A DNA stretch of 34,020 nt from a virus (Duplodnaviria > Caudoviricetes). The notes under the pieces are model-generated. The model searched no databases. It had not been told where the DNA came from and was given only the letters and a program-made list of their open reading frames with translations. Below are positions 138-33,370 of this stretch, one piece after another. The position numbers and the translations under genes were made by a program. Position 1 is the stretch's first letter. The number at the start of each line of letters is the position of its first letter. The stretch lies in the IMG/VR virus record IMGVR_UViG_3300030372_003397, positions 1 through 34,020 of that record. One strand, 5' to 3'.

Positions 138-517
138 ATTTGCCCACTTTGCATTAGATAAAAAGTATAAGAACTTGATGAAAATGGATTGAACACATAT
201 CCTACAATACCATTTGAAGTTGCAGTATTGACTTGTCCAAAACCAACTTGTATATCACTATCCCCTGTTGAACGCACTTCATTAAAAGAACTATCTGCCC
301 TAACTCTTAAATAGGCATATTCATAAATGGAACTTGATATAACTGATCCACTTGAATTTATAAATCTCATATCTAAATCAGAAGTATTTGTATCTGAAAC
401 TGTATTAGATGAAACAATTTTATAAATATCAAAATCATTTGTAAATACATCTGTAACATTTACAGAAGTAACTGTACTACTAACTGTTGTTTCATTAATT
501 AATCTTAAGTTACTCAT
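1..517 (-). CDS. Tail-tip paralog array member S1 (173 aa when completed across the circular junction); missed by ORF track
   Basis: ATG at 517 overlaps upstream TGA (ATGA); MSNLRLINETTVSS...NAKIRTYGLRVDT; frame continues to TAA at 33879-33881, which overlaps the next ATG; same family motifs as its neighbours. Confidence 0.88.
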   Translation of the reverse strand, partial: MSNLRLINETTVSSTVTSVNVTDVFTNDFDIYKIVSSNTVSDTNTSDLDMRFINSSGSVISSSIYEYAYLRVRADSSFNEVRSTGDSDIQVGFGQVNTATSNGIVGYVFNPFSSSSYTFYLMQSGQMSGTNFRAIKQIAILEQLSSITGVQLVVNGGNLTNAKIRTYGLRVD

Positions 518-1113
518 ATCTCTTTTATCCCATAAAGTTTTATAGTGGCTTTATCACAAGCAACACTTGTTAAAACTTGTAAAGCATTTATAGTTTCTGC
601 AACTGCATAAACACCACCACCAAAAGCAATATCTGCACCCTCTTTCATACCTTGAAAAGTTGCAAATGAATAACTACTAGAGTTATTTAAGTTATATAAA
701 TAAACATAATTGTTACTCTGTTCAGTATTATTTGTGTAACTTAGTCCAATAGCACTATCACTTGTTCCTTTTATTTCAGAAAATGTACCACCTGTTGCAC
801 ATACTTGTTGTGCATTTTGATAGTTACTACTTTCATAAGTACTTCCACCATCATTTGAAAATCTTATTGACACCAATTCACTTCCACCACCATTAGTTTC
901 ATAACCTAAAATAGTTAAAAAATGAACATCATAATTTGTACCTTTAATGTTTGTGAAGTTTATAGATGAAGTTGCACCACTAATAGTTTCAGTTTGTATA
1001 AGTTCTAAACTACCACCCCAACTACCATCTTTTGTTAGTTGTAATATTTCACTAGGCGTATATAAGCCAATGTTTTGTTTTACGTTATTCGGTTGCGTAC
1101 CTAAGTAAGCCAT
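514..1113 (-). CDS. Tail-tip paralog array member L1 (N-terminal extension plus beta-rich domain), putative receptor-binding/virion protein
   Basis: Ser/Thr/Gly-rich, C-terminal KLYG motif, AGGAG RBS, located after tail-tip genes. Confidence 0.7.
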   Translation of the reverse strand: MAYLGTQPNNVKQNIGLYTPSEILQLTKDGSWGGSLELIQTETISGATSSINFTNIKGTNYDVHFLTILGYETNGGGSELVSIRFSNDGGSTYESSNYQNAQQVCATGGTFSEIKGTSDSAIGLSYTNNTEQSNNYVYLYNLNNSSSYSFATFQGMKEGADIAFGGGVYAVAETINALQVLTSVACDKATIKLYGIKEI

Positions 1114-1125
1114 AAATTAACTCCT

Positions 1126-1452
1126 TTAGGTTTGTCGCAAAAATGATACATTATATTCCGCACTTGACGCTGCCGAACATAGTCCTTGTAACTTATCTCC
1201 TGTTTCCAATGTAATTTTAGTTTGGATCTCAATTGTTGTTCCAAATGGTAATGACACATTATTTAAAATATGTCTTAGTGATCCACCTGACTTTGTTACA
1301 CTTAAATCAATAGTTACATCTGCGCTAGTTCCACTAACATTTGAAACTAAAATACCAATTACTGTTTCAGTAGTTGAGCTTGGTACTGCATCAACAATAT
1401 CTCCTGCTGAAGTTCCTAAAACTCCTTGGACTGAGTGTAAAGTATCTGCCAT
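1126..1452 (-). CDS. Small beta-rich virion protein, putative tail fibre adaptor
   Basis: 108 aa, xLETGDxL motif typical of small tail-associated proteins; position. Confidence 0.55.
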   Translation of the reverse strand: MADTLHSVQGVLGTSAGDIVDAVPSSTTETVIGILVSNVSGTSADVTIDLSVTKSGGSLRHILNNVSLPFGTTIEIQTKITLETGDKLQGLCSAASSAEYNVSFLRQT

Positions 1453-1466
1453 ATCTTATTCCTTTC

Positions 1467-1985
1467 CTAGCTAAGAGCTAAAACTAATCCTAATGTTACA
1501 CCAGCACTTGCGTTTAATTGACCTGATGAAGCAGTTAAATTGCTTCCTGCCATTGCAGTTGCTAAATCTGCAATACTTTCTTTTTTAGGATTATTACTAT
1601 CATCTGCGTCTATTATTACAAAACTATCGTTTGCTACATTTACTGCACCTGCACTTAATCCATTTGGTGTAAATGTTAATGTTGAAGTAAAAGCACCTGA
1701 AGTAGCAGTAGTACCACCTGACAAACCACCTGTAGCATTAGTAGTAATAGTTACACCTGTTATATCGCCGTCTCCTATAAAACTTGCCCAACTACTTCCG
1801 TTATAAAATTGTAAAGTATTAGAGTCTTTTAAAAAGCAAAACATGCCTTCCTCAGGCGAACTAACTGCACTATCTCTAGCAGATGAATCAGCAAAGCCCA
1901 TTATTACTTGCTCTTGAATATAATTATTGAAGTCGCTAGCATTAACTAACTCTCCAGTTGTCCATACTTTAAAACCACTAGGCAT
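1467..1985 (-). CDS. Minor tail / tail fibre anchor protein
   Basis: N-terminus FKVWTTGELVNASDFNNYIQEQV...ARD..P.EGM resembles actinophage minor tail N-domains; AAGGAG RBS. Confidence 0.7.
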   Translation of the reverse strand: MPSGFKVWTTGELVNASDFNNYIQEQVIMGFADSSARDSAVSSPEEGMFCFLKDSNTLQFYNGSSWASFIGDGDITGVTITTNATGGLSGGTTATSGAFTSTLTFTPNGLSAGAVNVANDSFVIIDADDSNNPKKESIADLATAMAGSNLTASSGQLNASAGVTLGLVLALS

Positions 1986-2014
1986 TTAAAAATCTCCTTG
2001 ATATATCTATTCTT

Positions 2015-2023
2015 ATCTTAGCA
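2015..2023 (-). promoter_or_regulatory. Extended -10-like motif TGCTAAGAT
   Basis: Intergenic; identical copy at 31680-31688 and variants at 30736-30744, 29413-29421, 26866-26874. Confidence 0.45.
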
Positions 2024-3286
2024 TTAACTATAAGCAAATCTAGTTCCCTCGCCTAACTTAGCTTGTCCAAGTACCCAAGCAGATGACCCTGCAGGACTAA
2101 GATTTAATTTATATTGCCATTTTTGATTACTACTATCAATATTATGAGTTATACTTTCTATCCATACTTCATCACTAAATGTTGAACTATTTGGATTTGT
2201 TATATTAACCTTTACTCTATCTCCGAATTCAAGTCCTAAAACTTTTGGCCATAAAGAAGTATTATCTCTTGGATCAATAGTTAAATTATCAATTCTTTCA
2301 ATCGGTGTTGAAGTTTCAGTTAATTTTTGTTGAATAATTGATAAAACATTAGAGTCTGATATATTTTTAGTAGTCTGTGTGCTAGTTTTTGCAGTATATC
2401 TATTTACACTATCAGCGTCTGCTACATACTGTTGTGATCCGCTATCTCTTGTCCACTCATAAACATTTCTAACTTCATTAGTATCAAAACTTGTTTCAAC
2501 ATTTTTAAAAGGTAAATTACTACCGCTATTATCAAAAGTTGCTTGTACTGTTGTTGCTTTAGCATTACTTAATTTATAATCTCTATTTCTAAATACTGCA
2601 TTGCCATTAGCACCAATAAAAAATTGAGCATTTTCAGCAGTTTCGCACTCTTGTAAGCCAGTTAAAAGATTAGTTGTTATAGCTTGTGTAATTATTTGTA
2701 ATGTTCCAGTACTAATTGTTCGCATTGAACTAGGAAAGCCAATAGAGTCTAATAACCTAGTTACTCTATTAGAAGTCAATTCTTGTACGTCATCATAACC
2801 TAATCTAGTAGAACTTCCTAACTCACTAAAACCACTTTGACCTATTTTCCAACCCACTGATTGTATTGTTTGACTTTGAAATATTTTAAATGCGTCAATA
2901 GCCCTAAATTGTGTAGTACTATCTGCACCTTTAGCAGGATATTTAACTGGAATAGTATCTAAAAAACCATAAAAAAGAACATAAGTAGCTGAATCATATG
3001 TAGCTGATACCTTTACTGTCTTTAATGGTTGTATTTTAGTCCTACCATTAGCGGAGTCATAATAATTTGTTGTTTGAGTAGGATTAAACCTATTATCAGT
3101 ATTTGATAATAATAACTCACAAGTCCCTGCAGTAAATTGTCCTAATTCATTACTTCTTCCGCGCGATATTGATATATTACGAACATATTGCGATATATCA
3201 GTAAAACTTTGGCTACTATCGAAAGGTTCGCTATCAAAACCTATTTGAACGGTTAAATTAACATTGCTATCAAAAGCAACACTCAT
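2024..3286 (-). CDS. Minor tail protein (tail tip/hub)
   Basis: Immediately after tape measure; ISISRGR...AGTC.L.L.N.D.RF.P motif of actinophage-type minor tail proteins. Confidence 0.75.
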   Translation of the reverse strand: MSVAFDSNVNLTVQIGFDSEPFDSSQSFTDISQYVRNISISRGRSNELGQFTAGTCELLLSNTDNRFNPTQTTNYYDSANGRTKIQPLKTVKVSATYDSATYVLFYGFLDTIPVKYPAKGADSTTQFRAIDAFKIFQSQTIQSVGWKIGQSGFSELGSSTRLGYDDVQELTSNRVTRLLDSIGFPSSMRTISTGTLQIITQAITTNLLTGLQECETAENAQFFIGANGNAVFRNRDYKLSNAKATTVQATFDNSGSNLPFKNVETSFDTNEVRNVYEWTRDSGSQQYVADADSVNRYTAKTSTQTTKNISDSNVLSIIQQKLTETSTPIERIDNLTIDPRDNTSLWPKVLGLEFGDRVKVNITNPNSSTFSDEVWIESITHNIDSSNQKWQYKLNLSPAGSSAWVLGQAKLGEGTRFAYS

Positions 3287-5688
3287 AATATAACCTTTAT
3301 ACCTCGCCTTTGGGCTTCTAATATAGCCATAGCAACTGCGTCTGGGTCATTACTTTGAATATTATTTTCTTGTTGTAAATGTAAAATAGTTGTTACTCCT
3401 GCTGTTTGGCCAATCCTATCCATTGCGCTAACTGGATCTACTACTGCAGGTGGAACATCACCACCACCTCCAAGACCTCCTCCAGTATCAAAGACATCTC
3501 CACCACCGCCATTATTACCACCACCACCAGTAGCAGTACTTGGTACTTCGCCATTAAATAAATTTAAAAACTGGCCCCTTAATCTATCTAATTGCATGCC
3601 TGTTTTATCTACCATAGCTTTAAATAGTTCCTCAAATGTTCCTAATGCCTCTGCGTCTGCCATAGCTTTATCTAGCTCTTCTTTAGCTAGTGCTATTTTT
3701 AATATATTTTCAGGTGTTTGAGCAGTAGCCTCGTTGTAATCTCTTGTTGCTTCAGTTAATAATTCCTGTGCCTTAGTTAAATTTTCCTCTGCTCGTTTTT
3801 GTTCATCTAATGCTCTTTCTAATTGCCTTTTCTTATCTAACTGCTCACTATCAGCACTAGTACTTGCTTTGATTAATTCAGTAAGTTTTTGTTTAGCTAA
3901 AGCTAGTTCAATTTCCTGTATTTTATTCTTTTCCTCGGCTTGTTCAAGGTCTTGAACTGCTTTTGTTTGCCTTAATATAGCTAATTCTTCTTCTAATGTT
4001 ACTTTTTTAGCTTCTTCCATTGCCCTTATATGTTCAAATTGTGCCTCCGTAACAAAGTCATTTGCGTCAGCTAGTTCCTTTTCTGCTTTACTTACTAACT
4101 TGCTAGCTTTCTTGCGATCCGTTAATAAATCTTCTTGCTCTTTATATATATCATTTAGGTTGCGTTGTGCTCTTTGTAATTTATCAAATGCACTTATAGC
4201 GTTTTGGTTAATGTTTTTAATTCTTTCCATTTCCGCTTCAGTTGCCTCTTTTACTGCTTCAGTATTTTCTTCAGTTTCCCTAGTGTGATTTTTTAAAGCT
4301 TCATTAATAATATCTTGTGTTGTAGCATAATTTGTTTGTACTCTATCTAATTCACGAGCCGAATCTATAGCTTTTTGTGTTGCACTTCTATGATCCGTTA
4401 CTAAATCAGTAGTTTTTTCAACTGATACTCCATAAGCATTGTATGCTCTTGGTAAATCTGTACCATATAGTCCTACATTCCTATCAATTTCATCAGCTGC
4501 TTCTTTCATCCTTTTATGTGTTTCTTTTTGTTTTGTTATAAATTTGCTAAATCCTTGAGTTACTTTAGTAATTTTTTGCACCATTGCAGTTAAGGCAGGA
4601 GCAATTATTTCGCCAATAAGTATTCCTAATTCAGAAAATGCGTTATTCATTAAATCTATTTGTGCCTTAAGCGATCCCATTTGTTTATCAGCAACCATTT
4701 CAGTTGTACCACCTGATTGCCTTAAATCAGCCTCATACTGTCTTATTTGGTCGCCTGCACCTGATAATATTTTAACTGCGTCAGCAACACCTCTATTAAG
4801 CCCTAATTGGTCTAAGGTGGCCGCTTTCATTTCATCAGACATTGGTCCTAATACTCCGTCTAGTTCCTCGACTATATCAGCAACATTTTTCATATTGCCT
4901 TGACTATCAAACATTTCTAAACCAAGTTTGGCAAACTCCTCACTATTTTTAGCAGTAGCTCTTGGTATATCTCTTAATACTTGGTTTAACTTTTCGCCAG
5001 CCTCAGCACCTTTAACACCTCTATCTGCAAAGGCAGCCAATACTGCAACACCTTCCTCAACATCTTTACCAACTACTTTTAAGGCAGCACCTGCTTTAGT
5101 AGTTAATGCTTCAGAAAACTGTTGCACACTTGCGTTAGCTAAGGTATTAGCTTTTACTAATACATCAGTTACTCTTGTTAAATTATTTAAGTTAGCTTGT
5201 GCGTCATCAACTGATAAACCTAAAGCAGATTGTGCGTCAGTTGCTAAGTCAGTAGCAGTAGCCATATCAAACATACCTGCTTGTGCAAATTTTGCAACTT
5301 GTGGTAAGGCAGCTACAGATTGTTCAGCATTTAAACCTGCTGACGCTAAAAAGAAAAATGCTTCAGCTGATTGGTCAGCACTAATACGAGTAGTCCTTGA
5401 AGTTTCAAGTGCAGCCTTTTTCATAGCCTCTTGTTGAACTACTGTTGTGTCCATAATGGCTAATGACTGTGTCATCTTATCATCAAAAGAAATAAATTCT
5501 TGAGTAGCTTTTGTTAAACCTTTAGCTAAACCTACTGCTAACGCAAGTCCTGCAACCTTTACGGCAGCACTAAATTTACCTAAACTTTTTCCTGATTTTC
5601 CACCTTGAGATCCAATACCTGCAAGTTGTCTTTTTGCTAATTCAGCACCTTTGGTAACTATATTTATAGCAATATCTGCCATTGCCAT
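3283..5688 (-). CDS. Tape measure protein (TP901-like core)
   Basis: 801 aa, Ala-rich helical; SAEAFFFLASAG, KGAEAGEKL, GNMKNVADIV motifs; follows chaperone genes. Confidence 0.93.
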   Translation of the reverse strand: MAMADIAINIVTKGAELAKRQLAGIGSQGGKSGKSLGKFSAAVKVAGLALAVGLAKGLTKATQEFISFDDKMTQSLAIMDTTVVQQEAMKKAALETSRTTRISADQSAEAFFFLASAGLNAEQSVAALPQVAKFAQAGMFDMATATDLATDAQSALGLSVDDAQANLNNLTRVTDVLVKANTLANASVQQFSEALTTKAGAALKVVGKDVEEGVAVLAAFADRGVKGAEAGEKLNQVLRDIPRATAKNSEEFAKLGLEMFDSQGNMKNVADIVEELDGVLGPMSDEMKAATLDQLGLNRGVADAVKILSGAGDQIRQYEADLRQSGGTTEMVADKQMGSLKAQIDLMNNAFSELGILIGEIIAPALTAMVQKITKVTQGFSKFITKQKETHKRMKEAADEIDRNVGLYGTDLPRAYNAYGVSVEKTTDLVTDHRSATQKAIDSARELDRVQTNYATTQDIINEALKNHTRETEENTEAVKEATEAEMERIKNINQNAISAFDKLQRAQRNLNDIYKEQEDLLTDRKKASKLVSKAEKELADANDFVTEAQFEHIRAMEEAKKVTLEEELAILRQTKAVQDLEQAEEKNKIQEIELALAKQKLTELIKASTSADSEQLDKKRQLERALDEQKRAEENLTKAQELLTEATRDYNEATAQTPENILKIALAKEELDKAMADAEALGTFEELFKAMVDKTGMQLDRLRGQFLNLFNGEVPSTATGGGGNNGGGGDVFDTGGGLGGGGDVPPAVVDPVSAMDRIGQTAGVTTILHLQQENNIQSNDPDAVAMAILEAQRRGIKVIL

Positions 5689-5882
5689 TATTTTTGTTTC
5701 CTTTTCTTATTTTCAGCTTCTTGCATAGCTATAACCTTATTTCTTTCCGTAATCTCCCAGTTGTAATATTTTATCCACTGGTTGTATTCCTTATTGCTCA
5801 TTTTAGTAGTTAGTTCGCCCACAGTCATGCCTAACTCTCTAGCAAGTTTAAATTGAAATAAGTTGTCGTTATTCGTTAGGAA
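5688..5882 (-). CDS. Tail assembly chaperone GT C-terminal part, probably reached by ribosomal frameshift
   Basis: Open frame FLTNNDNLFQFKLARELGMTVGELTTKMSNKEYNQWIKYY...KQK*, with the LAxELGxTVxEL..MS..E...W motif; stop overlaps TMP start (TAATG). Confidence 0.8.
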   Translation of the reverse strand, partial: FLTNNDNLFQFKLARELGMTVGELTTKMSNKEYNQWIKYYNWEITERNKVIAMQEAENKKRKQK

Positions 5883-6204
5883 AGTTATCTGCTTCCGCAG
5901 AACCTCCTATGCCGTTTACCTCGTTAATTATTAAAAATATTTTATCTATTACTTTGCTATCTTTTTTATAAAGTTCATCAATATCATCATCAGATAATTT
6001 GGGATCACTTACACAAACTTTTAATAATTCTTTTTGATAATCAAATGCGTCAGTATCGCCGTCCTCTAATTGCCTACCAAGTTCAACTTGCATAGCTTTA
6101 GAAATACCTTGCACTTCAATAGTGCAATTCCACTCGTCTATTTTTACTTCTTTTGTTGGGACGTCAGGCAAACTTTTAATGCCCTCTACACTTAATCTTT
6201 TCAT
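5869..6204 (-). CDS. Tail assembly chaperone G
   Basis: Acidic 111 aa protein between tail tube and TMP; V.IDEW...V and DP.L motifs. Confidence 0.82.
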   Translation of the reverse strand: MKRLSVEGIKSLPDVPTKEVKIDEWNCTIEVQGISKAMQVELGRQLEDGDTDAFDYQKELLKVCVSDPKLSDDDIDELYKKDSKVIDKIFLIINEVNGIGGSAEADNFPNE

Positions 6205-6224
6205 TTTACTCCTTATTTATAAAT

Positions 6225-6635
6225 TTAGTGAGTTCCGCGTGTTACTGCTCCTGTAACTTGTAAATCTGCTGAATATCCTACGACATCTCCAACAGGACTT
6301 GACTTAGAATAACTTGTCATTATTGCTTCGCCAGTATATTTAACTTTACCACTTGCAGTACCCTCTGGAGAGTATTCAAATGATAATGTTGCACTTTGGC
6401 CAACAACTGCACCGAATATTGCGTCTGCTGTTGCGTCCCATAGTCCTGATAATGAGATAGTTGCGTCTTTAAGTCCAACAATGTAGGTTTTATTGCTAGC
6501 CCCTAAAGTTGTTGTTTCAGCAACATCTGCGGTCTGAGGAAAATCAACATTATTTACATACGAACTTACATCAGTTAGTGATCCAGAACCATTGTCTAGT
6601 TTAAAAACCGAATCTGATCCATGTACAAATGCCAT
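6225..6635 (-). CDS. Major tail tube protein
   Basis: AETTTLG..KTYIVGLKDATISLSG motif, YSADLQVTG C-terminus, position before chaperone. Confidence 0.85.
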   Translation of the reverse strand: MAFVHGSDSVFKLDNGSGSLTDVSSYVNNVDFPQTADVAETTTLGASNKTYIVGLKDATISLSGLWDATADAIFGAVVGQSATLSFEYSPEGTASGKVKYTGEAIMTSYSKSSPVGDVVGYSADLQVTGAVTRGTH

Positions 6636-6643
6636 ATTTCTCC

Positions 6644-7360
6644 TTAATTGTTTCTTCCAAATCCTACTATAGCATTTATAGTAGGTGTTGAGCTACCACC
6701 AATAGTGTTATGTACTCTTACATAACGATTAATAGTAGTTCCTTTATCTACGTATTTTATTTCGCTTGTTGCCCCAGTTGCTTGCGTAAATGTAATCAAA
6801 TCAGCATAAGTAACATTATCTGCACTATGTTGTATTTTTACATCTCCAGTTGGACTTGTCCCACTAACTGAAGTAACAATTAAAAAAGCTCCTGCACCTG
6901 CGGTAGTACTTGAAGTATTATCTACTGCACTTCCTTGCGCACCTGTTGTTGTAAAAGCAGAATTAGTAATAACAACTCCCGAAAAAAGGCCATTATCAGG
7001 TTGCACATCAATACTTGTAGCAACTACATCGCCTACTGGACTAGATACTGCATAATTACTTATGTTACCTTTACCAAATGTATTTCTATCTCCTGTTGCT
7101 ACTCCGTCTAAACCAATAACTAAATTAAAATCAGCTCCACCTAATAAAGGTTGTAATACTCCGTCTGAAGTTGCGTCAAATAATCCACCTAAACTTATTG
7201 TTCCGTCTTTTTCTCCAGGTACATAAGTTTTATTACTATTACCAAATGTAGTTGTTTCAGCTATGTCCGCAGTTTGCGTACTATCTGCATTATTAAAATA
7301 TGTTGAGTAATTACTTGCATTAACATAAATAACTACATCTTTACCATGTACAAATGCCAC
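6644..7360 (-). CDS. Second tail tube paralog with ~110 aa C-terminal extra domain (GTG start)
   Basis: Shares MAFVHG, TAD.AETTT.G.SNKTY, KD.TISL.GL.DAT.D and SSPVGDVV with 6225..6635; GGAGGT RBS. Confidence 0.78.
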   Translation of the reverse strand: MAFVHGKDVVIYVNASNYSTYFNNADSTQTADIAETTTFGNSNKTYVPGEKDGTISLGGLFDATSDGVLQPLLGGADFNLVIGLDGVATGDRNTFGKGNISNYAVSSPVGDVVATSIDVQPDNGLFSGVVITNSAFTTTGAQGSAVDNTSSTTAGAGAFLIVTSVSGTSPTGDVKIQHSADNVTYADLITFTQATGATSEIKYVDKGTTINRYVRVHNTIGGSSTPTINAIVGFGRNN

Positions 7361-7398
7361 TATCTACCTCCGCAACAACCTTGACCACAACAGTCCAT
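7360..7398 (-). CDS. 12-aa Cys-rich micro-ORF MDCCGQGCCGGR
   Basis: Coupled on both sides (TAATG upstream, TAGTG downstream). Confidence 0.45.
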   Translation of the reverse strand: MDCCGQGCCGGR

Positions 7399-7478
7399 TA
7401 TCTCATACCTCGTCTTCTTCTCCTACGGCCACGCCTACGACGACCGCCACTTCCACTTCCATAACTACCTTTTGGCAT
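7398..7478 (-). CDS. 26-aa Arg-rich peptide MPKGSYGSGSGGRRRRGRRRRRRGMR
   Basis: TAATG overlaps at both ends, GAGGAGG upstream, mixed Arg codons. Confidence 0.6.
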   Translation of the reverse strand: MPKGSYGSGSGGRRRRGRRRRRRGMR

Positions 7479-7690
7479 TATTCCTCCTCAAATTCTGTAT
7501 CGTAATCATCTACTTTTAAATCTTTTTTAAGTTCCTCTTTAACAAATTCTTTTTTATCAAAACCTTTTGCAATTATTCCTTGGTCTAATAACCACTTTTT
7601 ACTTTTTTTAGGTATTTTATTTTCCGGCACAAGTGATCCAGCTTCAAAGTATTCTTTTCCTATTTCAATACCAACTTTAACTTCAAACAT
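7478..7690 (-). CDS. Small hypothetical protein in neck/tail module
   Basis: 70 aa, TAATG-coupled; WLLDQGII motif common in small structural-module proteins. Confidence 0.7.
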   Translation of the reverse strand: MFEVKVGIEIGKEYFEAGSLVPENKIPKKSKKWLLDQGIIAKGFDKKEFVKEELKKDLKVDDYDTEFEEE

Positions 7691-8097
7691 TATGCTATTA
7701 CCTCTACTGTAAATTCTACACCTAAATAATCTATGTTATTTACATTATACACACCGTAGTTGTCTGCCTCAATAACTCTAACTGAACTTGCAACGCCACC
7801 TAAAGTTAAATCACTTTCACATTGTGCTTTAATACTACTGGCCCCTGAACTGTTTAAATAAGCGTCTAAAGTCTCTTGGCTATCTTGTGCATCAACACGA
7901 CTTACATAGAGGAAAACAGGTATTTCGTAGGTGTCAGCACCTCTCTGCATGGTACTATCGTAATTAACATTATCTACTACACCAATTACCGCAGTAGGTG
8001 GTTCAATGCTATCTGGAACATATCCATATACTGATAATGAAGTAATGTTAGCTAAATTAGTTTTAATACCATTTCTAATATCAGTTAAACTAGCCAT
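7690..8097 (-). CDS. Tail terminator / tail completion protein
   Basis: Position; PDSIEPP and D.TLGG motifs. Confidence 0.72.
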   Translation of the reverse strand: MASLTDIRNGIKTNLANITSLSVYGYVPDSIEPPTAVIGVVDNVNYDSTMQRGADTYEIPVFLYVSRVDAQDSQETLDAYLNSSGASSIKAQCESDLTLGGVASSVRVIEADNYGVYNVNNIDYLGVEFTVEVIA

Positions 8098-9271: not shown

Positions 9272-9277
9272 TACTTA

Positions 9278-9475: not shown

Positions 9476-9491
9476 TTTATCCTTTCCTAAT

Positions 9492-9533
9492 GGTGCCTCG
9501 CCTGAATTAGTTGCCCAGTCCAAGCGAGTTACC
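9492..9533 (-). promoter_or_regulatory. RNA stem-loop downstream of capsid gene
   Basis: CUCGCUUGGA/UUCAGGCGAG stem with G-U pairs on the mRNA strand, capped by a GCAA tetraloop; no U-tract. Confidence 0.6.
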
Positions 9534-23990: not shown

Positions 23991-24000
23991 GTATATTTTT

Positions 24001-25274: not shown

Positions 25275-25645
25275 TATTGTTTATAACTAGCAAAAGTCTT
25301 TGGTGTTTCGCTAACTACTACCTCTTGTACTAATAAATTTTTATCTATTTGGCTAAAAGCTAATTTAAAATAATGATATAAATATTGTGCTAAGTTTTCA
25401 GCACTAGTTTGAAAGTCAAATATATCATTTAAGTTTTTATGGTCTAATTCATTATCAATATATTTTTTTATAAAGTCCATTTTTCCATAATCGAATACAA
25501 AGCCGTCATTATTAACTTCATTTGAACTTAATATAACTTCAACTTTATAATTATGGCCGTGCAACCTACCGCACTTATGACCCTCTTCTAAACCATGTAA
25601 TTGGTGCGCACTAGCAAATTCAAATACTTTACCAATTGTAAACAT
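25274..25645 (-). CDS. queD: 6-carboxy-5,6,7,8-tetrahydropterin synthase
   Basis: F.SAHQL, CGRLHGHNY, LDHKNLN, SAENLA, SETPKT. Confidence 0.95.
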   Translation of the reverse strand: MFTIGKVFEFASAHQLHGLEEGHKCGRLHGHNYKVEVILSSNEVNNDGFVFDYGKMDFIKKYIDNELDHKNLNDIFDFQTSAENLAQYLYHYFKLAFSQIDKNLLVQEVVVSETPKTFASYKQ

Positions 25646-25649
25646 TTAT

Positions 25650-26432
25650 TTACTTGCTTTCGGTCCACTCTTTTTCTAATTTAAGAGCATTTTCAAGTGC
25701 ATTATCCCAACCGTCAATATATTCAACTGGATCTCTACGACCTAATTTCCAAAAGGCTAATATTCTTTCGACATCGCTTCCTGTTTTACCATTAGCACGT
25801 CCTTTTTCATCAGGAGCATAACTTGTATTAGTATTAGCAAAAATAGTATTAAATTCTAAACCTAACTTATTGCAATTAGAATCACAATCTTGAAGTATTG
25901 TGAATTTATCTCCGTCAATATAAGGCAACTTTAATTGCACTAATTCGTTATCCCAATTTCCAATTCTAAAAGCATTCATAGCTTCGACATAAAATTCTGG
26001 TCTGCAATCAGGGTAAATTTCATGGTCTCCGCTATGAACACCTAAGCCAATATCTACTTGGCAGTTTTCTCTCGTTGCAATAGACAGGGCATATCCGGCT
26101 ATCATTGAGAAAAATATCATATTTCTATTTGGGACAACAGTCGCTTTCATATTATCTTGTTCGTAATGACCTTCAGGTACTTCAATATTATCAGTGACTA
26201 AAGCAGATTCATATATGTTACCTAATTGACTTACATCTAAAATAGTATGTTCAACTTGAAAACCTTTTTCTTTTAAATAAACTAAATTATCAGCTAATCT
26301 TTCCAGTTCTAATTTATGTTTTTGTCCATAATCAAAACTTAAAGCACTTACTTTATAGTCATTAGCTAAAAATGACACTAATAAAGCCGTACTATCCATA
26401 CCACCACTTAAACTTAATACTGCTCTTTTCAT
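25650..26432 (-). CDS. queC: 7-cyano-7-deazaguanine (preQ0) synthase
   Basis: SGGMDS, FDYGQKH, VPNRN, YPDCRPEF; ATGA-coupled start at 26432. Confidence 0.95.
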   Translation of the reverse strand: MKRAVLSLSGGMDSTALLVSFLANDYKVSALSFDYGQKHKLELERLADNLVYLKEKGFQVEHTILDVSQLGNIYESALVTDNIEVPEGHYEQDNMKATVVPNRNMIFFSMIAGYALSIATRENCQVDIGLGVHSGDHEIYPDCRPEFYVEAMNAFRIGNWDNELVQLKLPYIDGDKFTILQDCDSNCNKLGLEFNTIFANTNTSYAPDEKGRANGKTGSDVERILAFWKLGRRDPVEYIDGWDNALENALKLEKEWTESK

Positions 26433-26824
26433 TGTTCGCAATATCCTACTGAAGTAGTTTCAATACCGCCTCTTTTACTTTGTTTATTTGTAACTTTTAC
26501 CCATTTAGGATCCAAAGTATCAAATAATTTTTGTGCAATATCACTTGCTAATGCTTCGCAAAAATGACCAACTTCTCTAAATGTCCATAAATATAGCTTT
26601 AAAGATTTACTTTCAATACATAACTCATTTGGTTCATATAAAATCGTTAATTGGCCAAAATCAGGTTGCCCAGTCATTGGACATAAACTTGTTAATTCGT
26701 CTGTCCAAAACTCTACTGTTTTAGTATTTTTTGGAGTTGGAAAAGTTTCCAATTGCTCCATAGGATTTCGTGTCTTTTTGCCTAATATAGTTAGGTCTTT
26801 TGTATATTCAGGCTCATTAGCCAT
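26429..26824 (-). CDS. queF: NADPH-dependent preQ0 reductase, type I
   Basis: SLCPMTGQPDF catalytic motif, QueF motif ESKSLKLYL, RGGI. Confidence 0.93.
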   Translation of the reverse strand: MANEPEYTKDLTILGKKTRNPMEQLETFPTPKNTKTVEFWTDELTSLCPMTGQPDFGQLTILYEPNELCIESKSLKLYLWTFREVGHFCEALASDIAQKLFDTLDPKWVKVTNKQSKRGGIETTSVGYCEQ

Positions 26825-26881
26825 TATTCCTCCTAGTTTTAAAGGTTGTCTAGTACTTTTAATTAAATATAGCAGTTAATT

Positions 26882-27415
26882 TTAAACTATGTAGCGTTTT
26901 TGTGAATTTGGTAGAGGTGCTAAGTCTTCTAATAATAAGTCCCAATAAGTAAAAGGCAGGCCAGTTTTAGATAATCCGTGCCATTTATAGCCTAAACTTT
27001 CATAAAAACCAATACTTGGTTTATTAGCAAAAAATCTAAGGTACCTTACTTTGTTATCTAAAATTTCCTTACTTAAGTAACTCATCATTTCAGAGCCAAT
27101 ATTTTTTCCTCTATAATTTTCTAAAACAAAAAAATGTCTTAAAGTGCAATGTCTCGGCTCTCGTTTAGTAAAACTAATAAACATAAATGCTTTTTGGTCT
27201 AAATGTAGTACTTTTGCATTAGGACTATTCCATTGTTTTTCTATATTCCAGTCATAAATAGCATTTTTTAAATGACTTTTACTGCTTAGTGATCCACCTT
27301 TATAATCGTCAATACTTACTAATAATGCTTTGCAATAGTCCTCATCTACTTCTCCAAAGCCATAATTATCTAACTCATCATCTAAATCGTCTAATATAGG
27401 ATTATCAAATATCAT
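26882..27415 (-). CDS. GNAT-family N-acetyltransferase
   Basis: FVLENYRGKNIG (motif A) and N..SIGFYESLGY (motif B). Confidence 0.85.
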   Translation of the reverse strand: MIFDNPILDDLDDELDNYGFGEVDEDYCKALLVSIDDYKGGSLSSKSHLKNAIYDWNIEKQWNSPNAKVLHLDQKAFMFISFTKREPRHCTLRHFFVLENYRGKNIGSEMMSYLSKEILDNKVRYLRFFANKPSIGFYESLGYKWHGLSKTGLPFTYWDLLLEDLAPLPNSQKRYIV

Positions 27416-27516
27416 TTGTGGTGTGCGTGTCCATATTTATAGTTACATATTGTTATAAATGTACCATTATCTTTAACATAAGTTGTGCAATAACTTCTAT
27501 TTTTTATTTCTTTCAT
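27412..27516 (-). CDS. 34-aa peptide MKEIKNRSYCTTYVKDNGTFITICNYKYGHAHHK
   Basis: ATGA overlaps at both ends linking the SLT and GNAT genes. Confidence 0.55.
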   Translation of the reverse strand: MKEIKNRSYCTTYVKDNGTFITICNYKYGHAHHK

Positions 27517-27929
27517 TTAGGACCCCAACAATGCTTGCTACTATTCCAATGATGCCAGCCGTCATTATATACCAACCAACGCGCCACTTTAGTAGATAAA
27601 AGCGGATCCAATCTCGTTCCGTCAAATTTTAATTTTCCTTTCAGCCAAGCCCAAGTTTTGTCATTAAATTGCCAAAGTCCTATATCTTGTGTTCCATTAG
27701 TATTATTTCCTACTGCTTTACTTTTTCCTCTTGACTCGCAATATATTATTTGTAAAGCCTTAATAATATCTTCTTCGTAAAAATGTTTTTCAATAAGTGG
27801 TTGCCAAACTTGCACCACTTCTATTTGGTGCTCAACTACTTTGCAATTGCGATATTCGACTATTGTTGTTGGTGTAGGTTCAACTAACAATAGGCATGTT
27901 ATTATTGGCGAAAGTAAAAATGTCATCAT
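27513..27929 (-). CDS. Lytic transglycosylase (SLT/lysozyme-like), probably exported
   Basis: CES catalytic Glu, GLWQF, GW.HW motifs; hydrophobic N-terminus. Confidence 0.85.
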   Translation of the reverse strand: MMTFLLSPIITCLLLVEPTPTTIVEYRNCKVVEHQIEVVQVWQPLIEKHFYEEDIIKALQIIYCESRGKSKAVGNNTNGTQDIGLWQFNDKTWAWLKGKLKFDGTRLDPLLSTKVARWLVYNDGWHHWNSSKHCWGPK

Positions 27930-28053
27930 ACTCTAAATTTAATCTAATTATACCTAGAGGCAGGTCTTTACTTTCCATAATATCGCCATTTTCTATAAGT
28001 ACTTTTGGTCCATTACCAGTATTTTCAATACCGACAATTTTCTTATCTACCAT
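27880..28053 (-). CDS. 57-aa hypothetical protein MVDKKIVGIENTGNGPKV..., possibly leaderless
   Basis: Open frame filling the gap; TG-T-TATACT extended -10 ends 6 nt before the ATG. Confidence 0.5.
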   Translation of the reverse strand: MVDKKIVGIENTGNGPKVLIENGDIMESKDLPLGIIRLNLEYDDIFTFANNNMPIVS

Positions 28054-28194
28054 ATAAAAAGTATAACATAGTTATAAAATTTATGGTATTTTATGGCCCC
28101 TTTTCTAAAAGCCCATAAACATTGACTATTTAGACCCTTGAGAATGCCCTCAGACAAAAGTAAATTTAAGTATGGTACAAGTTACCATAGATAT

Positions 28195-29406
28195 TTATAA
28201 AATTTTTAAGTTATCCCAACCTTGTTTAGATAATGTGAAAGTTAATACTCCATGACTTGTAGTTAGACCTAATCTTGCTTCTAATTCTTTTGAAGTGTCT
28301 AAACTTGGACTTTGGATCCAAGTCCTACCTCTTTCAGTTAATACTCTTAAATGGTGGTAATGGCCAGTTATTAATAAATCAGAAGTTCCTGCAGGTAATC
28401 TAGCCATAGCTTGGTTTTTCCACCAATTAATTAATTTATTTTCAGCATTACCTCCACCTCCAGTCATATGGCCATGATAAAAAGTAATCCTTTTATCTTT
28501 TACTTCTAAAGTTAAATAAAAATCATCAGGTATAACAGTTTTAACATGCTTATATCTTTCTCTTCCTGAAATTATTTCGCCAACTATTTGAAATATTGCA
28601 GTATCACTTCCGTCTAATCTTGTAGTACTAATTGAAGTTTTACCACTTCTATATTCACTATGATTACCTATAACACCGCCAATAACTATTTTTGGTGCTA
28701 ATTTTATAAAGCCGTCTAATATTTCAATTACCATTAACCTTGCAATATGTTCTTGTTCGGTCCTAGTTAGCTCAACATTAAATGGTTGGTGGTCAAAAAA
28801 TCCATAACAATTTTCAATTAAGTCCCCAATTCCTATAATATATATCTCATCTATAAGTGATCCGCTTTTATTTAAGTGTTTTATTTCTTCTTGTGCTTTT
28901 TTTATGCTTTGTTTTATATATGCAACAGTTTCATCGCTACCCCAATCTGCGTTATATTCAGCTTTACCAAATTGCCAATCAGCACAAATATAAAAGTATG
29001 CATGTGTGCCTTTATATTTTTTAATTTGTATTAGTTTTTTACTTTTAACATACCTTTGTAACTCTTTAAAGTATTTATCGTGTTTAGGTTTTTTTCTTCT
29101 TATAGTTGCCTTAAAAGCATACATTTGCTCTATACGGCCACCTTTTAATTGCGTGTCCCAAGTGCTAAATTTAATACTTTCTTCTTCAATATAAAATTCA
29201 TCAGGATTAAAGCCCCAACTATTAAGTAGTGAGTTAAATTTAAAATTATCTGTTTCAGGTTGTATGTGCGTTACTTCGCCACTATTCGTATTATTATCCC
29301 AACTTCTTTGAGGTTTCCAACCACTTGGATAGTAATTATTGCCTAATTCGTCGTTGTGTAATACTTCTTTCTTGTTTTTTATTAACTTTTTAACCTTATC
29401 GGTCAT
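28195..29406 (-). CDS. Calcineurin-like metallophosphoesterase (Mre11/SbcD-like, actinophage type)
   Basis: ADWQ.GK, GDLIE, GNH, HGH, GHYHH motifs. Confidence 0.85.
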   Translation of the reverse strand: MTDKVKKLIKNKKEVLHNDELGNNYYPSGWKPQRSWDNNTNSGEVTHIQPETDNFKFNSLLNSWGFNPDEFYIEEESIKFSTWDTQLKGGRIEQMYAFKATIRRKKPKHDKYFKELQRYVKSKKLIQIKKYKGTHAYFYICADWQFGKAEYNADWGSDETVAYIKQSIKKAQEEIKHLNKSGSLIDEIYIIGIGDLIENCYGFFDHQPFNVELTRTEQEHIARLMVIEILDGFIKLAPKIVIGGVIGNHSEYRSGKTSISTTRLDGSDTAIFQIVGEIISGRERYKHVKTVIPDDFYLTLEVKDKRITFYHGHMTGGGGNAENKLINWWKNQAMARLPAGTSDLLITGHYHHLRVLTERGRTWIQSPSLDTSKELEARLGLTTSHGVLTFTLSKQGWDNLKIL

Positions 29407-29423
29407 AAGGTTATGTTAGCAAT

Positions 29424-29609
29424 TTAATTCAATAAAGAACTAAAACTAGCAAAAAGAACTGCAAATGCAGTGATCCAACCTGTTATTTCCATACGAGTTG
29501 GTCTTGTATTAACTAAATCAAATAGCTGATTAACTTCTTTTTGCAAATCCTCTTGCCCTTTTAAGAGCAAGTTAAGCATTTCTTTATTTGTATAACCGTT
29601 ATCGCTCAT
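29424..29609 (-). CDS. Small membrane protein, lysis module
   Basis: Short coiled coil plus C-terminal TM segment. Confidence 0.6.
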   Translation of the reverse strand: MSDNGYTNKEMLNLLLKGQEDLQKEVNQLFDLVNTRPTRMEITGWITAFAVLFASFSSLLN

Positions 29610-29745
29610 TTTCGTTTGGTCCTGTAATCCAATCCCACTCTAATTCTTGCGTAATTCTTTCAATTTTATCGACCTTTTGTAGTATAAAGTATATCATTTT
29701 TATTAAAAAATAAAGCGATACTATACTCATAAAAATATTTTCCAT
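29599..29745 (-). CDS. 48-aa membrane protein MENIFMSIVSLYFLIKMIYFIL... (not in ORF track)
   Basis: AAGGAG RBS, N-terminal TM segment, fills gap. Confidence 0.6.
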   Translation of the reverse strand: MENIFMSIVSLYFLIKMIYFILQKVDKIERITQELEWDWITGPNENER

Positions 29746-29756
29746 TATAAATCTCC

Positions 29757-30278
29757 TTAATGTCCATGATTCATTGCTTCTAAATATGCAATTCTATTTT
29801 TAATATCATCTAACTGCCATGTTTCAAGTTGGTTAGTTTCTAATATTGTTACTTTTTTTTGTAAATCTTGCCACTCCCATTTCATAAGTTCATATGATTG
29901 ACTATCTTGACTTGGATTATTTAAGTCAGATATATACCTATTTTGAAAGTCATCGACTTTCCACTCTAAATCCCTTACTTCTGTTTCTAAATTTTGGTAA
30001 TTTGCCCTTAATATTGTTAATTCATTTTCTAAATATTCGGCATTATATGCAACTTGTTCTAATTGATATATTTTTTCATAAAGTATTGCTATATCATTTG
30101 ATACCATAGTACTTTCTTTTAACTGGTAAAATTCATATTCAATATTATTCATACGTTCATCAATACCAGTTAAAGTATTAACTATATTTGAGACTGATTG
30201 AAAACCAGCACCAATTGAACCTAATAAAGTAATACCAGTTACTACTAAAGCTAAATTATCTTTTAATTTTTTAAGCAT
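29757..30278 (-). CDS. Membrane-anchored coiled-coil protein
   Basis: N-terminal TM segment then heptad-rich sequence. Confidence 0.68.
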   Translation of the reverse strand: MLKKLKDNLALVVTGITLLGSIGAGFQSVSNIVNTLTGIDERMNNIEYEFYQLKESTMVSNDIAILYEKIYQLEQVAYNAEYLENELTILRANYQNLETEVRDLEWKVDDFQNRYISDLNNPSQDSQSYELMKWEWQDLQKKVTILETNQLETWQLDDIKNRIAYLEAMNHGH

Positions 30279-30490
30279 TAACCGCCTACTTTAAACAATA
30301 TCTCTCTTATAACTTCTTCTATTATTGTTAAATTTTGATTAAAGCCTGCAATACTTTCTTGATAAGCTACTACTTGAGCCTTTAAAGTTGCTACTTCTTG
30401 TTGTAGGTCATTTACTGTTTTAAATAACCAAGCTACTAAGGCAGCTAAACCACCTTGTAATATTTGTCCTAAATTTACCTTAGCTTCCAT
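30278..30490 (-). CDS. Small TM plus coiled-coil protein, lysis module
   Basis: GGLAALVAWLF followed by heptads; TAATG-coupled. Confidence 0.65.
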   Translation of the reverse strand: MEAKVNLGQILQGGLAALVAWLFKTVNDLQQEVATLKAQVVAYQESIAGFNQNLTIIEEVIREILFKVGG

Positions 30491-30708
30491 TAATCCTCAA
30501 AGGTTGCCTTAGGCTTATACTGTTCTAATGCGTGTTGAATTACTGTAATAAATGAACTTAAAAATGCCACTCCTAATAATTCAAACAAGTCTGCGTCAAT
30601 TATTCCTGTACTATTTGCTAGGTATAAAGATATTGCAGATTGTAATCCTGTTCTAAATGCTTTTGAAAACATAAACTTCCAATAAGCTTTCCAATTATTT
30701 TTTTTCAT
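30490..30708 (-). CDS. Putative holin (r1t-like)
   Basis: KAFRTGLQSAI resembles the r1t holin RAxKTxxQ motif; two hydrophobic segments; follows endolysin candidate. Confidence 0.62.
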   Translation of the reverse strand: MKKNNWKAYWKFMFSKAFRTGLQSAISLYLANSTGIIDADLFELLGVAFLSSFITVIQHALEQYKPKATFED

Positions 30709-30765
30709 TTTTCTCCTAAAATTACTTTTTATATAATTTTAGCAATATAGTTACTCGGTTGGAAG

Positions 30766-31350
30766 TTATACTATTTTATTCTTTAAAACTGCTGATTTTA
30801 TTTGTTTTAAATCTTTAATTATTTTATTAAACTTATCATCTACTACTTGCGTTAGCATTAAATCATCAGTACTTTTATTGGAAACTTGCGGATCACAATT
30901 GATACTTGATATAGTTAATGTTACTTTTTCGCCATTAACCATAGGAACTGCAATCTTATCATACATTTTTTTATAAGCATTACGACTTGACCCTATAAAA
31001 CCGTCCTTACTTACATCTAAGTCTTGTTGTGTATCGCCAACTAGAACGCAACCTGCCGAATTTTCGTCGGTATTACCACTATGAAAAAGCACCCATTTAA
31101 AGTTAGGTATATCTTTTATTTCAAGCATTCCATAATGTGCATTTTTATATCTAGCCGAATACCTATTATGAAAACCACCCTCTTTTCTAAATTCAATAGG
31201 ATAAGTTCCTTCAGGTATAGCAGTTTCGCCATAAACTTTAACTTCTCTAACTTCGTCCTCTAAGGTATAACACTCAAATACACCATTAATAAATAACATA
31301 CCGTTAGTTGCGTCCTCGCCAAACTGCGTGCGGATCACATCAAGTTTCAT
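30766..31350 (-). CDS. DUF5675-like protein, putative endolysin (L,D-peptidase-like)
   Basis: T.G.L, YTLED, AIPEGTY, HSGNT..NSAGCVLVG, SRNAY motifs; next to holin. Confidence 0.78.
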   Translation of the reverse strand: MKLDVIRTQFGEDATNGMLFINGVFECYTLEDEVREVKVYGETAIPEGTYPIEFRKEGGFHNRYSARYKNAHYGMLEIKDIPNFKWVLFHSGNTDENSAGCVLVGDTQQDLDVSKDGFIGSSRNAYKKMYDKIAVPMVNGEKVTLTISSINCDPQVSNKSTDDLMLTQVVDDKFNKIIKDLKQIKSAVLKNKIV

Positions 31351-31670
31351 TATTCAGGCTTAGGATTATCGTCTTTAACTTTTTTTAATGTTTTATAAAA
31401 GTCGCTAGTTTTATCAACTTTGCCTGCGTCTATTGCCCAAAATAACATATCTAATTGTTCTGGTATTGCCGGATAACTTTGTTGTCTAGATTTTTTATAA
31501 CCATTATCTTGTTCGTCTAATTTAGATTGAGCTAAATCTTCAATAGCTTGGTCATATTCAGCGTCAGTAAATTCTCTTATATCATTATTTACTTGAGCTT
31601 TCATTGGCTTACGAGCTTCTATTTCAGAAGTTGCCTCTACTCTAAATTCCTCTATTGTTTTTAATGCCAT
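31350..31670 (-). CDS. Putative tail fibre assembly chaperone
   Basis: R...YP.I.EQLDML.W...VK..NPK motif; directly after paralog array. Confidence 0.62.
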   Translation of the reverse strand: MALKTIEEFRVEATSEIEARKPMKAQVNNDIREFTDAEYDQAIEDLAQSKLDEQDNGYKKSRQQSYPAIPEQLDMLFWAIDAGKVDKTSDFYKTLKKVKDDNPKPE

Positions 31671-31689
31671 ATCTCTCCTATCTTAGCAC

Positions 31690-32214
31690 TTATTTTTTGA
31701 TACCGTATAACTTAAATTCGCCACTTACAATATTTCCACTATTCATATAAAACTGCACTCCTTTTGTAGCAACTGCATTTTTGTACAATCCACCTCCGTG
31801 CATACCTCTAAGAATTGATGAGTTATTAACATAAGCAGTTTCTTGTGCAACTGAAGTATATTCGCTTGCATTATTAGCATTAAAAATATAATGTGATCCA
31901 TTGGCTACTTCGCCACTTGCAGTTCCTATATAATTATCAACTCCAAAGAAAAAAGTTCCACTTCCATAAGCATTTTCAGGTGTTGTATTTGCTCTAAATA
32001 CTGTCCATGAAACATTATAATTTGAATCAGTTAATGGATTATTTGAAGTATCTAATAACCTAAATAATAGTCCTTGAGTATCAGTTTGTGGTACGACATT
32101 AGCATTAGTAACTAAATAAACATTGTAACTATCGTCCCAATTAGCACCACCTAAGGTAACTGTTGCACTATTACTTGCACTTACACTATCAATTAAAATT
32201 AAACTACCTGCCAT
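31690..32214 (-). CDS. Tail-tip paralog array member S4
   Basis: Family motifs, ends FKLYGIKK. Confidence 0.7.
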   Translation of the reverse strand: MAGSLILIDSVSASNSATVTLGGANWDDSYNVYLVTNANVVPQTDTQGLLFRLLDTSNNPLTDSNYNVSWTVFRANTTPENAYGSGTFFFGVDNYIGTASGEVANGSHYIFNANNASEYTSVAQETAYVNNSSILRGMHGGGLYKNAVATKGVQFYMNSGNIVSGEFKLYGIKK

Positions 32215-32723
32215 TACTCAACACCATATATAGTCACTTTAAAAGTTTTAGTAGTATGATTAACAATTCTAACACCTGAAACTATTTCAGCAGTTTCGTG
32301 ACACCCACTTAATCTTGACCCGTCTAAACCACTATCCATAAAACTTGCACTCTGGACGGTAACAAAAGTGAATTGAGCTACATCTGCGTTAAAAATTTTA
32401 ATCAAAGCTCCACCACCCCGACTATCATCATTACTACCTACTAATATTGGTGCTATTTGACTTGTACCAGTACTCCTCCAAGTATTGTCGTATGATCCAT
32501 AAGCACTTAATTGCTCTCCACCGTATTGATATTCATTTCCGTCTATTAAAGTACCAGAATTATCATAGAACCTTAGTCCCATATATCCCCCATTAGCACT
32601 TGCATTTATCAAATCAATAAACATATAATAATTGGTATAACCTTTTCCAAATATATTTAACATATCCAAATTATTAACATTTCCGTCAGTTTCAAATTGC
32701 GATAAAAATTGTAAATTATTCAT
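32214..32723 (-). CDS. Tail-tip paralog array member S3
   Basis: Family motifs, ends VTIYGVE. Confidence 0.7.
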   Translation of the reverse strand: MNNLQFLSQFETDGNVNNLDMLNIFGKGYTNYYMFIDLINASANGGYMGLRFYDNSGTLIDGNEYQYGGEQLSAYGSYDNTWRSTGTSQIAPILVGSNDDSRGGGALIKIFNADVAQFTFVTVQSASFMDSGLDGSRLSGCHETAEIVSGVRIVNHTTKTFKVTIYGVE

Positions 32724-33370
32724 TAAGTCATTTCCATACCATAAAGAGAAAAATTTCCACCAGTAAAGTTAGTAGAACCATTTTGGTCTGGGTGAAACCT
32801 AAAACCGTTATCCATACGAGTTTCAGGTAAGCAACCACTTCCAAATTCGGATCCCTGAACATTTGCTTCAGTTTGATATAATCCGTGATAAGTAATATGA
32901 GTATATTTACTGCTATCTAATGCGTTATATACATAAATAATACTATTAGCTACTTCATTTGTATCACTACCGCAATTATCAGTTACTCTCATAGCAGGAT
33001 AATTAGTCCCTTTAACATCTGTAAAAGTTCCGTTAGATTGCTGAACCATACTTGTAACTTGATAACCAGTACCACTTGCAACTCCGTCACTTAATAGTTC
33101 TAATCCCATTAATTTATTATTGTTTTCAATAGTTATATCATTTAAAATAATGCAAAAAATATCATAAAAACCATATTGGTCTATTGAAGTAAAATCTAAA
33201 GTACTTACATTAGAAGTAACATTTGTAGTAAGCAATAAATTCATTTGGCCAAATTGAGTCCATTTATCTGCTCTTGTTAAATCATAAATATCAGTAGGTG
33301 TAAAGATACCTTTATTATTAAATGGACTTTGCTCAGGGCTTTCAGGTATATATCCTGATTCACTACTCAT
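32723..33370 (-). CDS. Tail-tip paralog array member L2 (with N-terminal extension)
   Basis: N.GIFTPTDIYDL....W extension like L1; ends FSLYGMEMT. Confidence 0.7.
   Translation of the reverse strand: MSSESGYIPESPEQSPFNNKGIFTPTDIYDLTRADKWTQFGQMNLLLTTNVTSNVSTLDFTSIDQYGFYDIFCIILNDITIENNNKLMGLELLSDGVASGTGYQVTSMVQQSNGTFTDVKGTNYPAMRVTDNCGSDTNEVANSIIYVYNALDSSKYTHITYHGLYQTEANVQGSEFGSGCLPETRMDNGFRFHPDQNGSTNFTGGNFSLYGMEMT

Follow-up and report, generated by a model that had tools for sequence, protein, structure and literature searches.

The DUF6610 protein of the virus HVTV-1 has been named DpdA4 and called archaeal-virus-specific, and its activity could not be shown in E. coli (Cui et al., 2023, PMC10516641). 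HVTV-1 DNA is reported to carry dPreQ1 at ~30% of G (Hutinet et al., 2019, PMC6884629), and the available text of neither paper gives a target motif for DpdA4. Here we analyse a Caudoviricetes genome of 34,020 bases (IMG/VR record IMGVR_UViG_3300030372_003397, positions 1 to 34,020), hereafter the window, meaning the whole stretch of DNA analysed, which carries a DpdA4-type gene and in which GATC survives almost exclusively as an evenly spaced set of GATCC/GGATC sites. As in HVTV-1, DUF6610 occurs beside folE, queE, queD, queC and queF, with dPreQ1 as the predicted base; unlike in HVTV-1, the DpdA4 of the window is fused to a ParB_N domain within a siphophage layout of bacterial type, and three mycobacteriophages also carry DpdA4.

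Other described systems share parts of this picture. The DpdA of phage CAjan is reported to place dPreQ0 at GA and GGC and to block HaeIII (PMC7544227), and that of phage iggy to act at GA (PMC10484667). As we propose for the window, a site-specific deazaguanine blocks overlapping sites there, including the HaeIII site GGCC; unlike the window enzyme, these proteins belong to another DpdA subfamily, use preQ0 rather than preQ1 and recognize short, frequent motifs, and the available text reports no filtered or spaced set of sites. Haloviruses are described as either lacking GATC or encoding Dam (PMC8651126), and thus resemble the family of the window in purging GATC by default and retaining it where the virus can modify the site. 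The window differs as a third state, with retention on one flank, a set density, even spacing and no methylase found in the searches given below. Among host defences, Dnd and Ssp systems are similar to our proposal in that GATC, GGCC and CCA motifs are known for them and sparse marks tell self; they differ in being host systems and in the wider spacing reported for their marks. DndFGH is reported to work with partial modification, and a GATC-type system to take G6mATC for GpsATC (PMC6435447); a role for the distance between marks has been proposed for DndFGH and SspE (PMC8053081), and another analysis regards DndFGH as frequently uncoupled from the mark (PMC10853773). Neither shielding by deazaguanines nor the avoidance of sites is new. 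In the literature searched, we found no phage mimicry of Dnd/Ssp marks by a spaced lattice of sites and, with few subscription journals covered, no paper on a context-filtered, evenly spaced set of GATC sites in a phage. Nor did we find in that literature a flank-specific DpdA4 footprint, a change of such a footprint from one lineage to another, or a conserved pitch of 0.6 kb combined with complete turnover of sites.

GATC context and spacing in the window

The window has a GC content of 32.4% and is rated 100% complete by CheckV, yet is classed as linear. An exact count gives 58 GATC sites (345..32853; the first at 345, the last at 32850-32853), 36 reading GATCC on the plus strand and 22 on the minus strand; 57 stand in GATCC/GGATC, 10 of them as GGATCC. 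The plus-strand six-mers are TGATCC (23), GGATCA (13), GGATCC (10) and CGATCC (5), followed by the rarer GGATCT (3), GGATCG (2), AGATCC (1) and AGATCG (1), while TGATCA, AGATCT, TGATCT and AGATCA are absent from the whole window. An earlier note on this DNA, which had put the sites at about 58 with 57 in this context and a single AGATCG exception at 20600, and had listed the same four six-mers as missing, agrees with these counts. The exception (20600..20603) lies outside the 48 open reading frames (ORFs) used in our tests and inside a 76-codon frame without a homologue in relatives.

The context bias was confirmed by the shuffle proposed in the earlier note, for which we drew 500 versions of the 48 ORFs that preserved amino acids and codon usage. 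Coding GATC outside GATCC/GGATC numbered 0 against 34.2±4.1 in the shuffles (minimum 24), the depletion of a palindrome beyond codon effects by which restriction-site avoidance is recognized, and coding GATCC/GGATC numbered 53 against 25.6±3.7 (maximum 37). The longer words GTGATCC (25 coding sites versus 3.4) and GGATCC (9 versus 1.2) exceeded the shuffles as well. GATC in the window thus shows both a purge of other contexts and a gain of GATCC/GGATC. The share of this context expected by chance is 0.39-0.41, or 25.6 of 59.9 sites in the codon shuffles, nearer 40% than the 30% first assumed, which leaves the conclusion unaffected. When the sites are oriented, an extended consensus WWG(T/C)GATCC(A/G) emerges, GGATC(A/G)C being favoured. 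The iterated palindrome of HIP1 type is defined by an over-represented GCGATCGC octamer, and was rejected as an explanation, since the count of CGATCG in the window is 0.

The surviving sites are also evenly spread. Their gaps average 570 bp with a coefficient of variation (CV) of 0.58, the longest being 1645 bp, and 0 of 20,000 random placements were as even. Under a stricter null, in which 54 sites were drawn 20,000 times from the 337 coding positions where GATCC can arise silently, the CV averaged 0.96 with a minimum of 0.618, compared with an observed 0.576. Short and long gaps were both too few, with 8 gaps below 250 bp observed versus 18.9 under this null, and 2 above 1100 bp versus 8.4. 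A fixed periodicity was rejected, as no convincing peak appeared at 100-1500 bp or 9-12 bp. The very improbable alternative that shielded GATCC is neutral and merely tolerated, implied by the earlier note's passive filter, would suit a distant phage described below (87/90 GATCA, CV 0.89) and the GGCC sites of the window (CV 0.92), but it fails here, where GATCC is at twice the shuffle value, gaps are depleted at both ends, the spacing is replicated in two further lineages with unshared sites, and the turnover of sites contradicts it.

GATC state across relatives

GATC purge is the default of the family. Of 80 loci with related terminases, a redundant and mostly partial sample, 51 have at most one GATC, and to this extent the claim that host restriction purges the site stands, the restriction itself being what we infer from it. 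One family member (L064) has 37 GATC in 1,798 bases, where 19 are expected. The cassette linked to ParB varies by lineage and goes with GATC state, and one phage family (G003, G412, G413; G005, L013, L019) swaps such cassettes, carrying TAGT, TET/JBP, phosphoadenosine phosphosulfate (PAPS) reductase or DpdA4. Lineages with TET/JBP are without GATC. In lineages with a TAGT glycosyltransferase (G003, G412, G413), whose complete records hold no DUF6610, GATC is unfiltered at 1.4-1.6 times the Markov value.

Three lineages with DpdA4 retain GATC on three different flanks. In the C lineage (DpdA4 86-100% identical to that of the window), 89/91 unique sites are GATCC, with a mean gap of 659 bp and a CV of 0.53. 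In the T lineage (71%), 34/37 sites are GATCT (mean gap 632 bp, CV 0.40); the DpdA4 gene was seen in L205 and L206, and L003, L004, L283 and L376 were placed by pattern and neighbouring genes. In the G lineage (51-56%), 52/53 sites are GATCG (mean gap 656 bp, CV 0.56). The longest gaps measure 1.0-2.1 kb in every GATC-bearing family genome compared. A distant ParB-DpdA4 phage of 57% GC (G002; L123, L193-L195) has 87 of its 90 GATC as GATCA/TGATC, and GATCA is neither enriched there (68 versus 61 expected) nor evenly spaced (CV 0.89). The DpdA4 tree is poorly resolved, with 4/24 branches supported, and the idea that the first barrel loop encodes recognition (TLQ going with GATCG) was rejected because TLQ is found in many proteins whose loci are unfiltered.

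Comparison of aligned loci showed that the GATC pitch is conserved and the positions are not. Five C-lineage loci keep 19/43 aligned window sites, compared with 38-47% for control 4-mers, and in loci with a kept site none of the 8 gained sites (7 distinct) is closer to it than 425 bp. In the T lineage, 1/14 window sites is kept and the loci have 15 of their own. Every filtered set has kept GATC at a coding density of 1.3-2.2 per kb, whereas the value expected under neutrality for the permitted context ranges from 0.5 to 1.35 per kb in low-GC lineages. Spacing is thus shown to be under two-sided selection, with single sites turning over freely.

A further lineage carries a cassette of PAPS reductase/DUF3440, two ParB genes and a sodium:solute symporter upstream of the terminase (L198 in G004, L360-L363, L074). 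Across four overlapping loci, 108/108 GATC overlap or touch CCA/TGG, GATC beside CCA being enriched (40 versus 9.0 and 39 versus 9.9 expected) and spaced at a mean gap of 432 bp (CV 0.69); GGCC also overlaps or touches CCA/TGG. The CCA rule is not followed in G411 (L364, L443), whose enzyme is 94% identical. These patterns suggest that the phage modifies CCA. If CCA is the shield, marks would be dense there in any case, and the enrichment and spacing of GATC point to a need for GATC itself, with GATC rather than one chemistry as the spaced element. No DUF6610 was found in these contigs, which are 34-57% complete, and the expected contrast between relatives with and without the modification genes is to that extent not borne out, this lineage being filtered and spaced as well.

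The DpdA4-type enzyme and its candidate targets

The main genes of the window all lie on the minus strand in siphophage order. The candidate shielding enzyme is a ParB_N-DUF6610 fusion of 407 aa (19305..20528, minus strand; Pfam DUF6610 E 2e-34, ParB_N E 0.003; PHROG ParB-like E 1e-39), encoded ~3 kb upstream of the genes for terminase, with 33% identity to HVTV-1 gp69 over 141 aa (E 1e-24). A structural model built from a 109-row alignment, with a predicted local distance difference test score (pLDDT) of 94, is a TIM barrel that best matches the archaeosine tRNA-guanine transglycosylase (TGT) 1iq8 (Z 14.0, root-mean-square deviation 4.4, 237 residues aligned), followed by the bacterial TGT 3unt (Z 12.6) and the DpdA 7ui4 (Z 11.6, 233 aligned). 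Unrelated barrels reach up to Z 12.6 with fewer residues aligned, and a sequence search of the PDB with the DpdA4 alignment matched ParB proteins only. By its domain, its homology to HVTV-1, its TGT-like barrel and the accompanying synthesis genes, the protein is a DpdA4-type guanine transglycosylase, for which insertion into DNA is predicted.

The synthesis genes, also on the minus strand, comprise folE for GTP cyclohydrolase I (24001..24561; PF01227, E 2e-56), a queE-like radical SAM enzyme named from its gene context (24537..25274; PF04055, PF13353), queD (25274..25645; PF01242, E 5e-31), queC (25650..26441; PF06508, E 2e-41) and queF (26429..26824; PF14489, E 2e-23). This queF is of the nitrile reductase type and has the NADPH motif of Cui et al. 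(2023), and preQ1 is therefore the predicted, and likely, deazaguanine base of the window. Beside queF lies a GNAT acetyltransferase (26882..27415, minus strand; PF13508, E 5e-10), a possible preQ1 acetylase; in the T and G lineages a methylase occupies this slot or lies close to it. The earlier note had seen no DNA methyltransferase gene, and this holds for PF02086, PF01555 and PF00145, which gave no match at E<=1 in six frames of this complete record, the families covered by the six-frame search. A tRNA search found none. A protein of 367 aa without Pfam or PHROG matches, whose C-terminus has a HELSH (zincin-like) motif, is encoded at 17869-18972 (minus strand) and is also present in the C and zero-GATC lineages.

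The closest named relatives are mycobacteriophages (44-46%). In Mycobacterium phage Rinkes (L135:1-2560), gp1, annotated as ParB-like only, has a DUF6610-type domain with 45% identity to the window protein and sits two genes before an annotated dpdA, giving two transglycosylases; the domain of gp1 also occurs in mycobacteriophages Funsized and Knocker.

GGCC is apparently a second shielded word in the lineage of the window. The window has 42 GGCC sites (1..34020) with random spacing (CV 0.92). The C lineage retains GGCC or has it in excess (observed/expected 34/21 and 35/19), and the other DpdA4 lineages are depleted of it (0/12, 3/16, 3/6, 6/10, 3/8); it is kept in TAGT lineages too. By analogy with the known deazaguanine systems, this suggests a GG-centred target that would span GGATC and GGCC, and a general GGA shield found no support in other words. 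Because GGCC is also freed from avoidance in the C lineage, the readable GATC word need not be the whole target of the enzyme. The idea that the modification motif can be read from the genome is therefore supported in part, as a footprint of one context that may not be complete. The window strongly avoids many five-base words that are not palindromes (GGATG, GATGG, GATGC, GAATG, GGTGA, GAAGG, ACAGC and GGGAA), plus ACGT and CATG, and this breadth of word avoidance points to a host range rich in restriction systems. ACGT is kept in the G lineage (77/78) and nearly absent in the T and zero-GATC lineages.

The r1t-type holin and SLT domain encoded in the window point to a bacterial host. Searches by terminase found no close match in GTDB representatives (at best 46% over a short segment and 40% near full length), those by folE reached ~43% at best in 401 Actinomycetota genomes, and the capsid gave one weak match in 80 genomes of one order. 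Marine Actinomarinales have a reported GC content of ~32.5% (PMC7771536), and a guess at such a host would fit the holin, the SLT domain and the 32% GC. Two small low-GC bacterial genomes (G243, C1:1-120000; G029, C1:1-60000), which are not shown as hosts, have unfiltered GATC at about one third of expectation (119/364 and 50/155).

Explanations for the spaced GATC set

We propose that a GATC purge, one shielded context and a separate spacing pressure, probably from a host sensor of mark density, act together in the window, a reading to which we give a probability of roughly 0.4. Hosts would carry GATC-cutting restriction enzymes, as the avoidance of the word across the family suggests, and ParB-DpdA4 would swap G for a 7-deazaguanine of preQ1 type, the candidate shield of one GATC context. 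The G that the enzyme modifies probably lies in a target centred on GG, one that would include GGATC, with GGATC(A/G)C as its best form, and probably GGCC. Each GATC would be a risk, but a stretch of over 1-2 kb without a marked GATC might be attacked by a sensor of the DndFGH/SspE kind, and the optimum would be few, evenly spread, shielded sites. Either the base inserted by the phage or one that the host adds at kept GATC could serve as the mark. That such a sensor maintains the lattice is a tentative proposal by analogy with DndFGH. Equally tentatively, a shielded GATC every 0.5-0.7 kb could satisfy the sensor and escape GATC cutters, with the lattice erased and rebuilt at unchanged pitch whenever the flank preference changes (GGATC, AGATC, CGATC, or beside CCA).

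Several observations weigh against this proposal. Most family members thrive without any GATC, and one lineage with DpdA4 (61-66%), que genes and GNAT has 0 GATC in the complete 38.9 kb G001, where 80 are expected. ATGAC, the best candidate for a replacement motif in that lineage, was rejected because its evenness did not replicate (CV 0.74 in G001 and 0.73 in L282, but 1.0 in L209, 0.94 in L009 and 0.72 with p 0.08 in L007). HVTV-1 (L136, 15001-65000) has 0 GATC in 50 kb (220 expected) despite its DpdA4. We surveyed 103 non-redundant DpdA4 loci, defining a filter as at least 85% of GATC on one flank and testable loci as those with at least 5 GATC; 77 were testable, 9 had none where at least 8 were expected and 17 were too short. 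Among the testable loci, 65/77 show no one-flank filter and 12/77 do. The T lineage has a small C5 methylase (L206:1433-2056) and the G lineage an N6/N4 methylase (L212:1918-2667) near the que genes; these could be shields of their lineages or preQ1 tailoring enzymes, and with both lineages carrying them, it is not certain that DpdA4 is what sets the T and G flanks. The claim that the protected context is the target of the deazaguanine enzyme accordingly keeps a real candidate in DpdA4 and a flank that shifts with its clade (C, T, G), and is weakened by the zero-GATC DpdA4 lineage.

Further points concern the target and the spacing. Some GG words stay avoided in spite of their GG (GGATG 2/23, GGGAA 3/20, GATGG 4/32), and GANTC is not rescued by a 5' G. 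BamHI is reported as not blocked by dPreQ0 at GA in iggy or CAjan (PMC10484667), and as stopped by dG+ (PMC5567051). Measured phosphorothioate spacings are given as mostly 1.5-10 kb, wider than 0.6 kb (PMC8053081). Twofold enrichment over codon shuffles is also seen for GGCGA, ACGCA and CCGTC, none of which is evenly spaced. In four control sequences, the most even of 16,000-20,000 patterns reached z values of -3.9 to -4.8, compared with -4.2 for GATC here. Because chance-best patterns attain similar evenness, what carries the spacing claim is that GATC was picked in advance and that the result is replicated in lineages whose sites are not shared.

The alternative that survives best, which we nevertheless consider unlikely, is that ParB-DpdA4 loads at GGATC(A/G)C or has it as its narrow target, and that the periodic marks serve the phage itself: clamps might be loaded there and slide over a few hundred bases, the marks might identify the DNA as self during packaging, or they might block the way of translocating nucleases. 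An extended consensus of 7-9 bp is typical of a single protein footprint, the fusion lies close upstream of the genes for terminase, and spacing is 0.63-0.66 kb in three DpdA4 lineages versus 0.43 kb in the PAPS-reductase lineage. Against this, GATC is absent both from a lineage whose fusion is 62-66% identical and from the TET/JBP lineages, which have ParB genes; the lineage with an apparent CCA shield, a frequent word, still spaces GATC; and GATC would be a poor private signal under GATC restriction.

We judge it distinctly improbable that a host methylase is the shield (of GGATC type here, of other types in sister hosts), with DpdA4 acting elsewhere and its clades tracking host clades. The close lineage that has DpdA4 and lacks GATC, and the unfiltered majority of DpdA4 loci, would be explained in this way; however, a shield given by the host should be lost on passage through a strain without the methylase, the TET/JBP, TAGT, PAPS-reductase and DpdA4 cassettes each have their own GATC state, and the release of GGCC coincides with the GATCC lineage. 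Just as doubtful is a role for DpdA4 as shield with the spacing serving another GATC-needing host process, such as import by a DNA-ratcheting binding protein, a Chi-like signal that halts a helicase-nuclease, or signalling for repair. Whatever the chemistry, it is GATC that is spaced, and the longest gaps are alike in all GATC-bearing family genomes compared, as this would predict, but zero-GATC relatives are in the majority, and such a process therefore cannot be essential; no such GATC system was found in the literature searched.

A shielded lattice kept by a host sensor of mark density would have consequences beyond this genome. Our proposal includes what is, as far as we found, the first prediction from sequence of the target of a DpdA4, for which nature offers three variants in specificity, and it adds ParB fusions in phages of bacterial type to the range of DpdA4. 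As a quantitative trace of selection, the spacing would open the self/non-self question of sparse-mark defences (DndFGH, SspE) to testing: the pitch predicted for a mark-sensing defence is ~0.6 kb, and its ceiling is near 2 kb. The combined test of filter and spacing can be applied to other genomes of uncultured phages to read their modification targets. If the proposed mechanism is true, a phage genome of this kind would report both the target of its DpdA4 and the sensing range of the host defence.

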